From positions 67,372,788 to 67,436,787 of the forward strand of contig CM120640.1 of the NCBI GenBank assembly GCA_051362555.1: 64,000 nt of DNA. Direction: 5' to 3'. The notes beneath the pieces were generated by a model. It was not told the origin of the DNA. It did no database searches and saw nothing but the letters and a program-made list of their open reading frames with translations. A program made the position numbers and the translations under genes. This DNA comes from Lingula anatina (taxonomy: Eukaryota; Animalia; Brachiopoda). Below, piece by piece: positions 39,001 to 51,000 of the stretch (positions within the stretch are counted from its first letter, which is position 1; each line of letters opens with the position of its first letter).

Positions 39001-42000
39001 CTGTTATATACTGTATGTATATATGGCTTAATTATGCAAGTGCTCACTGTATATAATTGCTTTAAATTAACAATTTGATAATTTTCTTGCTTCTTTCTTA
39101 AATTGAAACTATGATTTTTCTATGGAATGGCATCAAATTTCATATTAAGTAATATTGTTTGAACACATCTTTCTCAAAATTAAAAAGATCAGTGCTTTAT
39201 AACCTTTTTAGGCATTAATGAGATAACAGACAGTGGTCACAGGAAAATACTCCAAAGAAAACCATGATTACACATTGATTTCATTTCTGTATAATTTTAT
39301 TTTAAAAATGAGAACATTTTTATAATGGTGGAACTGATCGATGATCAAAAATATCAGAGATTATAGTTGCAGTTATATGAAACAGTGTGTATTTCTTGAT
39401 TATAATTTGACATACATTTTTGTTAAAACCATTCAGTGCCTTGATCAAAAGATTCACTTAGATTTAATGCTATTAAAAGAGTAAAGGTGCTTTTACATGA
39501 TTTCAGATAGTTGTAGCATTTCTGTAGTGATTTGTGATTATTTCTCTCTCTAGGCCTGTGTCAACATCACAGTTCAAAGAGCATGTGGAGAAATACCACA
39601 GAGACTCAGATCTCTTGTTCTCAGATGAGTATAAGGTGAGTTGTAGGGCCAAATTTAGGCAAGTAAAGCAATTTTTAAACTTGAACAGTGCAATGTCTTT
39701 GCTAATGGTATCAAAAGTTTGCTGAATTATTACAGAAGTTAGGTAACAGATTAAGTAATATGTGAGACATTTATCTTGGCTATACTAGTGGTATTGCCTC
39801 CAGTATATGTCAAAGTCTTGCGATCAATAATACAGTGTTTCATCTAACAGTTCCTTATGACTGTATGCAATTTTAATTGACTGGTGAGTCTCGTTGAAAA
39901 TGGTTTTTATTTTAGTAGTAGTATTATTATAATAATTCAAATCAAGCCCTTCCTCACCTCCTAAAACTTGGTGCGAGATAATGTTTTAGAGTCATGTAAG
40001 TTTAACTGAAAAATGTTGTCTTATTTGTAATTTTAAATATCTTTTTTTTTTACCTGTCCCATCACTTTTCCTTAGTTGATCAAATTTCTAAGTCCAAGAT
40101 TTGGCTGTAATGAAGCTATCCATGAGGCCAACAGATGTAAAAACAGATTTACAAATATCCACCCATGTAAGGAAAAAATGGACACATGTAGCTATATATA
40201 TATATATGGAATGTGCATGCTTTGTCCTAAAACCTCCATTACCATTCTAATTTAAAAGTTTTATTTAAATGATAACTTTTTATTTTTATATCATTTACAG
40301 GGTAAGGGTTCATCCATTTTTATCATTTTCATAAGTCTACAAAAAGCATCCTTTTTCCAGGACCTCTCCCCCCTTCATAGAGTACAAAGTGAAAACCTAA
40401 AAATGATGACCTTTGTCAGCAATTTGAATCATCATTTTCAAGTATTTTTCGAAACAGAGGGAATTAACCTCTCTCTAAGGAGTATGGTTTGTAGACTTGT
40501 GAAAGTGAGGATAAAAATGGCTGACATCTTACTGACTTGGATGTATTTTTTAAAACAAATTGCCATTATTGTTGTTTTCAACAATGTATCTATGCAATTC
40601 GAAACAAAATGTTGGCAACCCTTCACTTGAAATATATATGGATTGTAACAACTTATTCACATTTAAATGCTTCCCATTCAGGTTTTATATTGTTTTACCA
40701 TGACAGCAAGCATTCAGCAATATTTAGCTTGAGGAGGAAATGGCATGCTGTATGTGCTCCACCCCATCCCCCACTGCCCTTACTGAAACTGGAATGTCCC
40801 TCAACCCTACAGAAATTTCCTATAGGATGTCCTTTGGGATTCTATGTCACACTATAGGAATCCTATAATACTTTGTAGGACTTCTTTCAGACATTTTAGG
40901 ACTCCTTAATAATTCTGTCGGATTTCCTATAGGATTTCGAGCCTATTTCCTTTAGGGTTCTATAGGACCCTATAGCATTTTGGGCCGATTTTCCTTAGGA
41001 CATACTGTAGGACCCTATAGGAAATTTCTGTAAGGGAAGGAATGGGTCAGTGCTTCTTACATATATAATGCTTACTTGCATGTTCTACAGACTGTTAAGG
41101 AGCTGGCACCTAGTTATGAATGGTTGGAAGCTGAGAAACCCAGCAATCGCTGTAAAAACAGATATACTAATATATTACCATGTAAGTGTATACTAATGTT
41201 GTACTGCCCTCTACTTGTCATTGTGGTTATTGAATGCCTTAATTACTAATGTGTTGCCCTGTGCTTGTCATTGTGTTCTGATATATGATAGTATGCAATT
41301 AAGTATGTTATTGTGTAGGAGTCAGTTAATAATCAATGCTAGTGGTGCTTAACATACAAGTAGAAGTTTTCTGTGTTTGTGATATGTCATGTTCTTCTAA
41401 TGTGTGTTTCTTTGTTGATTTACATTGAAATAATTTTTAGTGACTTATTCTTGTACTTGAGTGATTCAGCTGTCACCCACTTTTCAAAGACAAAAAGTCA
41501 TTTTCAAAATTAACGATGTTATTTTACTGAAGTCAATGTGTTCATGTATGAAATGGTATTTGTGAAGTTAAGTTGTAATGGGTTTGTTGGTAATTTGGAT
41601 TTAGACATTGGAGTAATTTTTATGTACAGACACAGATGTGTCTGTACATATTGCCATCACCTGCGTCTGTCGTCGCCGATGCCGATGGCGATGCCGATGC
41701 CGATGCCGATGCCGTCGCCGTGCACTTTCCTTGTAAACACGATAAGTGGAAGGCAGTTTTACTTTTTGGCTTTATATTTGCAGAGCTGATGAATATTCAT
41801 AAAACGCAGGTCAAGTTCGAAAATCAGCATGATCGGGCCATTATTGTAGAAGTTATGCTGTTTTTTCACTTTTCAGCATATTTTTCACATTTCCTCAGAT
41901 TCAATTCTTAGGCATGTTAACAGTCTCATTATTAAACTAATAAGATACGTAAAAGTTTTTGTTTGACATTTCCTGCATCTTTACAACATTGTTAGTTGAT

Positions 42001-48000: not shown

Positions 48001-51000
48001 ATATATATATACCAGCACGTACATCTGAAGCTATTTCAAATCAAGTCTTCTGTTAATGTTTGTGGACAAAAGGCTTTCCTTACTTGACCCTAGTGACCAT
48101 AAAAAAAACCCACAGAGGTGTCTGCCACTGGTCTTTTTACATTAACTGGCACACTTAGGGATTATCAATGCCAATCTGTTCCACCAATGTTTAAGTGGGC
48201 TTCGGTATTAGCAGACTGAAAAGAATGGTTTTTTACGGTAGCTGCAAACACATAGGACAGAGATACTGATGTTACGGAAACTAATTGCCAATTAAGGCTT
48301 GCCTGCTCAATGTCAAGAGGGAATTAACCTCACAGAATTGAATCTTTGCATTAAAGCAGTCCTTTTGGAGGTAATGATTCCATGTGATACCCCATTGTTT
48401 TGTTTAACTAAAAGGAAATGAATGAGACTAACCTTAGAAGTCTTGTCTGATAGCAGACATGTTATTCAGAGTTACTCAGGGCTGAAGTTCATCAGGTTTT
48501 ATGATTGATTTTAATAAACATCTTTGTTGATATTTACAGAACTCTTACAGCAAACATAAAAACACAAATACAAGGTGGTAACTATCTGCAGATTGGATGT
48601 ACATTAACGCCTGGGGACAGTGTACAAGATCTATGAATTAGTTTTAAACTTGCATCAAAGCAGACATATAGCATTTTGGTAGATGTTGACCAAAATTCAT
48701 ATTAAATGTAATTCATAATCAAATTTCATGTTTAACCGTACACATACTTATTTATTTTCAGTTCTCATGGTGAAATTGTATGTCGCCTTCTTCACATCAT
48801 TTATGCTGTTGCACAAAGCATGTTGCTATACTTACTGTATTTACATGATTGTGATGATATACTAACAGGATTGTTTGCATGCCTTCCCCTATAGGGTAAC
48901 AACACTCGCACTGTCCGCCATTTTAACTTCACGGTGTGGCCAGACTTTGGCTGCCCGGACACTACCAGATCCCTGCTTGAGTTTGTGAAAGTAGTGCGTA
49001 CTCACATCAAGCCAGACATCCAGGGACCCATTTGTGTCCACTGCAGGTAAAGTACTATAATGACATATGCTTTAATGAAACATGATTGTCTTTTTAATTT
49101 TTGCTTGTTTCTTTTGAGCCTTATGGAATGAGCATAATGCCTTGCAATTGTATTGGAACCAATCGATACATTTTTTGCAAATTTTTACTTGTTTACAGTG
49201 TTCTTTGATCTCTCTCTCTCTCTCTCTCTCTCTCTCTCTCTCTCTCTCTCTCTCTCTCTCTCTCTCTCTCTCTCTCTCTCTCTCTCTCTCTCTCTCTCTC
49301 TCTCTCTCTCTCTCTCTCTCTCTCAAAAAGGTAATGATATTTTGGATCCATTTGATGTCATTGACACTGACCGAGTATTCTTTAATGATCTTTCATCTAA
49401 GAGTCATCACAAGGAAAGAAATGACAGATATTTAATATATTGTGGGTTGCGTTAAATTAAGACCATTGAAATTGATACGATTCATTTTTTGTATTGCATT
49501 GTTAATAGCATCCTAATGACTGCTCATTTAAAATGCACATAAGCAAAAAAACTTGATTCAGAGAATAATAGAATTAAGTGCGGATCCACGTCAATCCAAA
49601 GGTGTATCAATTACCAATAACTCCTGCTTATTGAAAATCACAGAAGTGTGGAAGTTCACCTGTGATTGAAATCATTGATGCGTTAGGGGACTAGCTTCCT
49701 GTTATTAGAATGGCGTAAACCAGGCACGTGATCTGGCCAGCCGGGACTCTGGAGAAGAATTAACTAGAAAGTAGAGCCAATTTAGTGTCATGAATTATAC
49801 ATTTGATCTTAATAAGAATGGCTGCTCAAGTCTGCAGTTCAAAGTTATCAAAATATTCAATCCAATAAGAGCTGCTGACAGGAATTTGATGAAGAAAATG
49901 GAAATTGTGGCATTTCAACTGTAAAGTGTATTGTCATTTAAGAAATAAAAATATTTTTGTGTCATTTGGTGCTCATAAGGACATTAAGTCTAAATCCAGG
50001 CTTGGCAATGCAGCAGTAGTCACATAAAAAGTTGGTTGTTATAACATTATTTCAGATTTCTGGATAAATTTTTTTGGGTGAGACACTGCTAATATGCTGC
50101 ATGAATTGTTTCTTGCCATTGTGATTATTTTAACCAAGTATCAGACTTCATCCATGCACATAAAACACAGTTGATAGTATTTTATCAAGCTCTTTGTTCA
50201 TATATTATCATGATATTAAGGAATGTTGTACGCCTTAAGATCTGATTAAGTAAATTTAGTTAATGTGAAAGTGCAGTCTATCTTTGCAGCATGCACGCAG
50301 GCATGTGTGTGTGTGCTTTGAAGTGTTTGGGTTTCATAGATGCCAAAAGGTACAGCACTAAATCCATAAGAAGCAATTGCTTTCATGTATTGAAAGTCGA
50401 TTATTGAAATGTGATGCTCAGTTCAGAGGACTTGATATCAATCCATATATTATTTCCCTCTTGCATCACCCATTGATATATCAGTTCTACAAGGCTTGCA
50501 CTCCCAAGGTTAATTCTTGCTCATTCAATATCCGGCCTGTAATTAATAACGTGGCTTTTGAGGTTTATTTGAATATACCTATTATGTCTCGAAAAGCGGT
50601 TATTCCATTGGGTCTTTTTTCTAGCAATCAGACATAATAGACACTTATCCGAGAAACAGGTCAGAAAGTGTTCCGTAAGGGAGCTGAATAAGTGTATTGG
50701 TTCCTGTTTAAACTGATAAATGATCTTCATGATTGGGTTAAATGGATGGAAGATATTGGCTCATAGTAATTCAACAGGGCAGTGATTTTTTTTCTTTTTC
50801 CCCCTCTCTTTTTCATTCTATTTTTAAAGATCTGGAATATCTTGTTATTACCAAGTAATACTGTTTTGGTTATAGTTATTGACAGTTAAAGTGGTCATCC
50901 TGAATATATCTACTAATCTGTGTAAGAGAAATCTTACCATGATTTACGAGTTAAAGACTCATTTTTTGTTCAAATTAAAAAAAGGTTATTTCTTACAGTA

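Follow-up and report, generated by a model that had tools for sequence, protein, structure and literature searches.

The 64,000-nucleotide (nt) stretch of the Lingula anatina genome analyzed here (hereafter, the window; GC content 34%) contains the 3′ part of one receptor protein tyrosine phosphatase (PTP) gene, encoded on the + strand. Two exons of its PTP domain, one encoding the KNRY loop and the other the WPD loop, are each present as two tandem copies. RNA reads revealed that the KNRY-loop exon is spliced as one copy at a time, and that the copy used differs between samples. Taking the evidence together, we consider it quite probable that this is an R3-type receptor PTP gene whose KNRY-loop exon is switched between samples, with the WPD-loop exon likely treated in the same way, the resulting isoforms having the same catalytic residues and likely differing in substrate preference and loop dynamics.

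The two duplicated exons were designated A and B. Exon A1 (40076..40166), the apparently derived KNRF copy, and exon A2 (41091..41181), the KNRY copy with the ancestral-type motif, are both 91 nt long and encode the pTyr (phosphotyrosine)-recognition loop, preceded by what we take, from PTP1B numbering, to be the end of helix alpha2′ and the second-site loop. Exon B1 (45603..45757; 155 nt), the WPDH copy, is nearer to single-copy orthologues, while exon B2 (48895..49046; 152 nt), the WPDF copy, is diverged; both encode the WPD loop, helix alpha3 and the VHC motif. The remaining exons of the domain, all on the + strand as well, are constitutive exon U (39554..39635) before the A pair, C1 (44475..44551; DHSRV...DYINA), C2 (44911..45045; IAAQGP...) and C3 (45238..45360; KCEQYWP...) between the pairs, D (51165..51300; SAGVGRTG and the Q loop) after the B pair, and a further exon (58648..58714; DQYIYIHEC...) that carries the end of the PTP domain and whose 3′ end is a putative donor. 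All PTP-domain exons have AG/GT ends. Both A copies run from phase 0 to 1 and share 15 of 30 amino acids, and both B copies run from phase 0 to 2 and share 26 of 52 aligned amino acids.

As examined by tblastn within the window, A1 matched A2 with E=1.4e-6 and B1 matched B2 with E=2e-14, indicating that the similarity within each pair is not due to chance. On the other hand, U, C1, C2, C3 and D each gave a single PTP-type match. Whole-domain duplication was thus ruled out, the exons between the pairs being single-copy, and the proposal of the initial annotation that two exons were duplicated in tandem around single-copy ones, with AG...GT ends and matching phases, was borne out by these searches and by scripted exon joins. 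Specifically, 16 joins were made, combining A1, A2, both or none with B1, B2, both or none, and the frame stayed open only in the four joins with one A and one B copy, reaching [10 protein letters not shown]. Each of these four contains a KNRY-type loop (with F for Y in A1), WPD, HCSAGxGR and the Q loop. Both pairs also show the features by which homologous mutually exclusive exons are recognized, namely adjacency, homology, similar length, and matching phases and splice-site type.

The flanking introns of the copies are unrelated, with only 15, 14, 10 and 9 matches in 38 intron bases on either side. By the Nei-Gojobori method, synonymous (dS) and nonsynonymous (dN) divergence was 1.45 and 0.59 between A1 and A2, and 1.04 and 0.41 between B1 and B2, on few sites in each case (17.7 and 29 synonymous sites, respectively). 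Given the unrelated introns and a dN/dS of ~0.4 for both pairs, on these few sites, at dS of 1.0-1.45, the sequences indicate that the A and B copies are old duplicates under purifying selection and not an assembly artefact, in agreement with the selection proposed by the initial annotation. A collapsed haplotype or a recent segmental copy was ruled out by the same introns and dS values.

For exon use, four raw-read RNA runs bearing the same species label (X1, X3, X4 and X7) were aligned to positions 34700-41600. In X4, the U-A1 joint was found in 17 reads with 13 starts, the U-A2 joint was found in none, and depth over A2 was zero. Six reads with a loose end behind A1 in this run continued into the first 30 bases of C1. 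In X7, the U-A2 joint was found in 12 reads with 8 starts, and the U-A1 joint in none among the joints listed. No A1-A2 joint was listed in any of the four runs. These joint counts indicate that A1 and A2 are real exons, each spliced alone, with an all-or-none contrast between samples (Fisher p=1.9e-8 for X4 vs X7, assuming independent reads; the distinct starts number 13 and 8). Mutual exclusion, which the initial annotation had put forward for both pairs, is therefore established by reads for the A pair (17:0 and 0:12). For the B pair it is likely, because the frame is kept only by one-copy joins and because annotated isoforms of bivalve orthologues swap the same exon. We infer that A is switched by tissue or stage; the tissues of the runs are not given.

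The all-or-none A switch would also fit a single programme that could control B at the same time. In that case, both pairs would be mutually exclusive but coupled, and only two catalytic domains, for example A1 with one B copy and A2 with the other, would be built in a two-state tissue or stage switch. We put this just short of an even chance. It is compatible with the explanation given above and limits only the number of isoforms; however, the B swap occurs in bivalves without an annotated A swap (4 vs 0 of 14 protein clusters, described below), so that a B choice needs no A choice.

Several points weigh against a regulated choice between functionally different loops. The A result comes from two informative runs, since the A exons were barely covered in X1 and X3, and a loose end leading from A2 into C1 was absent among the rows listed. 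X7 carries many fixed differences from the window, with only 90-95% likeness in 74 of its 131 reads, so the contrast between X4 and X7 may be a difference between lineages rather than regulation. The RNA evidence is confined to the A pair, and the bivalve RefSeq isoforms are annotations. A search for docking and selector stems gave no ungapped intronic stem above shuffled sequence (six region pairs, 12 shuffles each). Finally, all effects of the exon swaps on function are deduced.

If the contrast were one of lineages, each population or cryptic species would splice one A copy and keep the other dormant. Consistent with this, the only run using A2 (X7) carries many fixed exonic and intronic differences, and the only run using A1 (X4) is close to the window. 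Yet A2 of the window haplotype is intact, its donor is strong (8/9), it keeps the ancestral KNRY, only one X7 difference falls in A2 among the rows listed, and dN/dS between the A copies is ~0.4; we therefore hold lineage-fixed use to be improbable. Over 34700-41600, the fixed differences of X7 include three amino-acid changes where exon U begins, which suggests that X7 comes from a diverged population or a cryptic species under the same species label.

A similar doubt concerns the B pair, one copy of which might be a slowly decaying or rarely included duplicate unused in this animal. The long branch of B2 (1.57 changes per column), the weak splice signals of B1 and the lack of reads seen for either copy would fit such a case. 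Nevertheless, both copies keep frame, phase, WPDxGxP and VHC at dS of ~1.0 and dN of 0.41, B2 has good splice signals, and bivalve isoforms alternate at this exon too, all of which make an unused B copy a poor candidate. Single-copy splicing of both exons stays our preferred account.

How exclusion is achieved was approached from the introns and splice sites. The introns between the copies are 924 nt (A1-A2) and 3137 nt (B1-B2) long, AG-free zones measure 23-73 nt, and no U12-type donor is present. Steric exclusion and U2/U12 incompatibility are unlikely given these intron lengths and donors. Dscam-type control by docking and selector sequences was also set aside, as competing intronic complementarity was not found in the form of ungapped stems in the six region pairs. 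The acceptor of B1 is the weakest (8 of 18 pyrimidines), B2 has a strong acceptor together with a branch-point-like motif at -33, and, as noted, the A2 donor is strong. In the four both-or-neither forms examined, a stop lies 709, 473, 194 and 73 nt before a downstream junction, beyond the 50-base rule for nonsense-mediated decay given in PMC1431701. The likeliest mechanism would be a splice-site choice driven by splicing factors, with nonsense-mediated decay removing transcripts that carry both copies or neither.

To place the duplications among relatives, 30 proteins were looked up by cluster, and 14 clusters had at least two members covering PTP-domain sequence. The WPD exon was alternative in 4 of these 14 multi-member clusters, from oysters and a scallop. 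In Saccostrea, the isoforms XP_062589564/5/6 and XP_062605499/500 (two loci) differ within the domain only in the G...VHC exon, as do XP_021372256 and XP_021372258 of Mizuhopecten. The Magallana model A0A8W8J3A0 contains the two B-type copies one after the other, starting with the K-WPD copy, and thus matches the window gene in their order. A difference in the KNRY exon was found in 0 of the 14 clusters, a count of annotated isoforms beside which genomic second copies could be unannotated.

The A duplication looks lineage-specific, with A1 as the derived copy, because three residues seen here are absent from all 28 orthologues compared: the Cys of NRCKNR, which A1 and A2 share (0/28), the Phe at the last position of the KNRY motif (Y in 20, W in 8, F in 0), and the His two residues before the end of the A exon (0/28). 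Note that all eight arthropod-type orthologues examined (P0037, P0001, P0053, P0078, P0094, P0088, P0022 and P0121) have KNRW and not KNRY.

For the B duplication, one and two origins were compared in constrained trees built from 26 rows and 43 columns of the B exon. Trees with independent duplications gave p-AU (approximately unbiased test) of 0.51 and 0.68 and were 12 log-units better than one ancient event, which was itself not rejected (p-AU 0.094). The swapped pairing, in which B1 would group with the bivalve second copies, was rejected (p-AU 0.022). The trees thus slightly favour an independent B duplication in bivalves. Both bivalve copies moreover share Y-L-x-WPDM, which is absent from Solemya, cephalopods and the window gene, and this pattern points to either a separate bivalve duplication or homogenisation of the exons. 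It also affects another point of the initial annotation, which set WPDH against WPDF: that difference is not the conserved one, as both bivalve copies are WPDM.

A single ancient B duplication, whose copies persisted in the window gene and in bivalves while cephalopods and gastropods either lost one or have it unannotated, would account for the same exon standing in the same copy order in both groups. It would also account for two losses common to downstream-type copies: the His four residues before W is found in 0 of 8 rows (B2, four from bivalve second copies and three from heterodonts) vs 18 of 18 others, and the Asn 12 residues after Asp in 0 of the same 8 vs 16 of 18 others. These losses may reflect shared ancestry or convergence. 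In a quick tree, B2 was placed beside the bivalve second copies with weak support (51 and 74). Set against the 12 log-units in favour of independent duplications and against Y-L-x-WPDM in both bivalve copies, which homogenisation could also explain, a single event appears rather unlikely to us. On the account we prefer, the A duplication would be confined to the lineage of the window gene, and the B exon would likely have been duplicated separately here and in bivalves. A more far-reaching proposal, which we regard as doubtful, is that independent switches of the two loop exons create up to four functionally distinct PTP domains, and that at least two lineages separately duplicated the WPD/alpha3 exon, which would make it an evolutionary hotspot, and convergently lost the His and the allosteric Asn of alpha3. 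If true, these genes would be natural loop-swap experiments on how the WPD loop and alpha3 control PTP rate and specificity.

With respect to the enzyme, the WPD Asp, the VHC Cys, the P-loop Arg and the Q loop are identical in all isoforms; the Cys codon closes each B exon, and exon D encodes the Arg and the Q loop. As these residues are the same in every isoform, the chemistry is predicted to be unchanged, and what differs is the set of non-catalytic residues around the catalytic ones. The description of the domain in the initial annotation as having a swappable active site was accordingly an overstatement, since the general-acid Asp, nucleophile Cys and P-loop Arg never vary.

The A exon spans the segment before and through KNRY, and the largest difference between A1 and A2 lies in the second-site loop (PRFGC vs PSYEW). 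According to Barr 2009 (PMC2638020), the second-site loop and residues after KNRY help define substrate specificity, and the Tyr of KNRY stacks on the substrate pTyr; Phe in A1 would keep this stacking. Exchange of the A exon would therefore change the second-site loop and residues beside the pTyr pocket, and hence the phosphopeptides bound. The B exon spans the WPD loop and helix alpha3. In SHP-1, H422Q, at the residue after the WPD Asp, altered kcat and broadened the pH profile, as described in PMC11350601. PMC6039181 describes alpha3 of PTP1B as following the WPD loop and Asn193 as part of an allosteric network; counting from D181 without gaps, the equivalent position is N in B1 and E in B2, whereas the second copies of bivalves have K or H. 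The residue that follows the WPD Asp is not conserved, being F, H or M in single-copy orthologues. Exchange of the B exon would change this residue and helix alpha3, and hence turnover or the pH profile. PMC8297725 names T177G, at a site where B1 and B2 alike have T, and was not used as support. The exon swaps would thus tune substrate choice and not change chemistry.

PTP catalytic domains are viewed as fixed, with specificity attributed to targeting and ectodomains, and enzymologists engineer WPD-loop swaps to learn how loop sequence sets rate. In the window gene, splicing would swap segments of this engineered type while leaving the rest of the protein the same; RNA reads support this for one pair, and oysters and a scallop present a parallel or conserved case. 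Such isoforms would be ready matched pairs for learning how activity is tuned by the second-site loop, by the residue that follows the general acid and by alpha3. The case also flags exons that invertebrate PTP gene models leave unannotated.

Mutually exclusive homologous exons in catalytic domains are already known. According to PMC1431701, Mapk14/p38, Mapk9 and Mapk10 have such exons, and the Mapk14 forms reportedly differ in activity and substrate specificity. These genes resemble the window gene in having a duplicated exon within the catalytic domain of a signalling enzyme; however, they are kinases with one pair per gene, whereas the window gene encodes a phosphatase in which both pairs belong to a single domain. 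An alternative exon in an invertebrate enzyme is also found in coq-2a/coq-2e of helminths, where it alters substrate choice and switches with conditions (PMC7434440; annelid and mollusc are among its keywords). That enzyme is a prenyltransferase whose function was shown experimentally, whereas the function of the window gene is deduced. A human and fly survey reports nine homologous mutually exclusive exon events near catalytic sites (PMC7954323).

In the searchable literature, no description of a mutually exclusive exon in a PTP domain was found; the complete exon catalogues for human (PMC5740500) and Drosophila, which may list a PTP, and subscription papers lay outside this search. The main text of PMC8373072 gave no match for phosphatase, PTPR or PTPN, and "ptp" occurred 0 times in one supplement of PMC9741552 (15,271 characters) and in six supplement files of PMC7954323. 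R3 receptor PTPs (Drosophila PTP10D; PTPRB, PTPRJ, PTPRH, PTPRO and PTPRQ) are like the window gene in having FN3 repeats, one transmembrane segment and one PTP domain, but their splicing, and that of receptor PTPs in general, concerns ectodomain or truncated forms in the literature searched. The bivalve isoforms of Saccostrea, Magallana and Mizuhopecten have the same WPD/alpha3/VHC exon duplicated in the same order; they differ in that both copies are WPDM and no KNRY-exon swap is annotated, and they come from automatic annotation for which no paper was found. What is notable here is thus the presence of two pairs in one PTP domain together with a matching bivalve event.

On the features examined (FN3 repeats, one transmembrane segment and one PTP domain), the gene is an R3-type receptor PTP. 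Extracellular FN3-repeat exons occupy 305..30948 (+); Pfam fn3 matches were found in 14 of the 18 upstream stop-free stretches scanned. The gene starts upstream of the window, and the N-terminus of the ectodomain beyond it may hold further domain types. Amid the FN3 exons, a 142-codon stop-free stretch at 13178-13603 has no Pfam match and may be a non-FN3 ectodomain exon. A single transmembrane segment precedes the PTP domain: the transmembrane exon (36100..36199, +), with RNA joints on either side, encodes a hydrophobic stretch followed by KRRG. The juxtamembrane exon (37673..37777, +) is in frame with it and with the next exon, and RNA reads (joints 36198-37672 and 37775-39552) connect both to exon U with the frame kept. 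Mapping D1 and D2 of a LAR protein placed the two on the same exons, with nothing further up to 64000, indicating that there is one PTP domain. Orthologous proteins terminate shortly past the PTP domain and have a C-terminal tyrosine motif of the YxN type, a feature of R3 receptor PTPs.

Tandem-domain LAR proteins crowded the protein searches, whose listed matches did not include the protein of the window itself. The closest of the 151 proteins compared were molluscan (Sepia, 68% over the PTP domain). In a tree from 186 constitutive columns, the window gene was nearest to cephalopod orthologues (94/83) and split from three LAR D1 domains (100/100), LAR being the only outgroup, with no fly sequence included; the "R3" labels of vertebrate proteins in the PTP-domain tree are ones we presume. 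The best single-domain PDB matches of an orthologue were PTP10D and PTPRB, and orthologues carry various names in their sources (10D-like, PTPRQ-like, H-like and eta-like). Lipid phosphatases of the PTPRQ type have WPE instead of WPD, and this class was rejected here, as both B exons encode WPD and neither WPE.

The reads also revealed variation upstream of exon U. An optional in-frame 42-nt juxtamembrane cassette exon at 38567-38608, which is acidic (ESDEEEEAW...), is present in part of the X7 and X4 reads and skipped by the rest; its ends were taken from the nearest AG/GT. At 35866-36100, two classes of joint precede the transmembrane exon, one of them with 9 extra letters absent from the window (in X1, X4 and X7), which represent either an allele difference or a micro-exon missing from the assembly. 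At 36200-37471, X1 and X3 reads run at low depth from the transmembrane exon into the intron, with no joint to the next exon listed. This read-through meets a stop straight after KRRG, and AATAAA occurs at 37166; a membrane-anchored, phosphatase-less form made by intronic polyadenylation is possible.

The introns of the gene contain unclassified interspersed elements at 4334-9591, 32892-34489, 41612-44338 and 51382-53071, and at 11430-12012, 19801-21536 and 26644-29290, with internal tandem units of 159-161, 338-401 and 146-148 nt. One such element lies between A2 and C1, and another past exon D.

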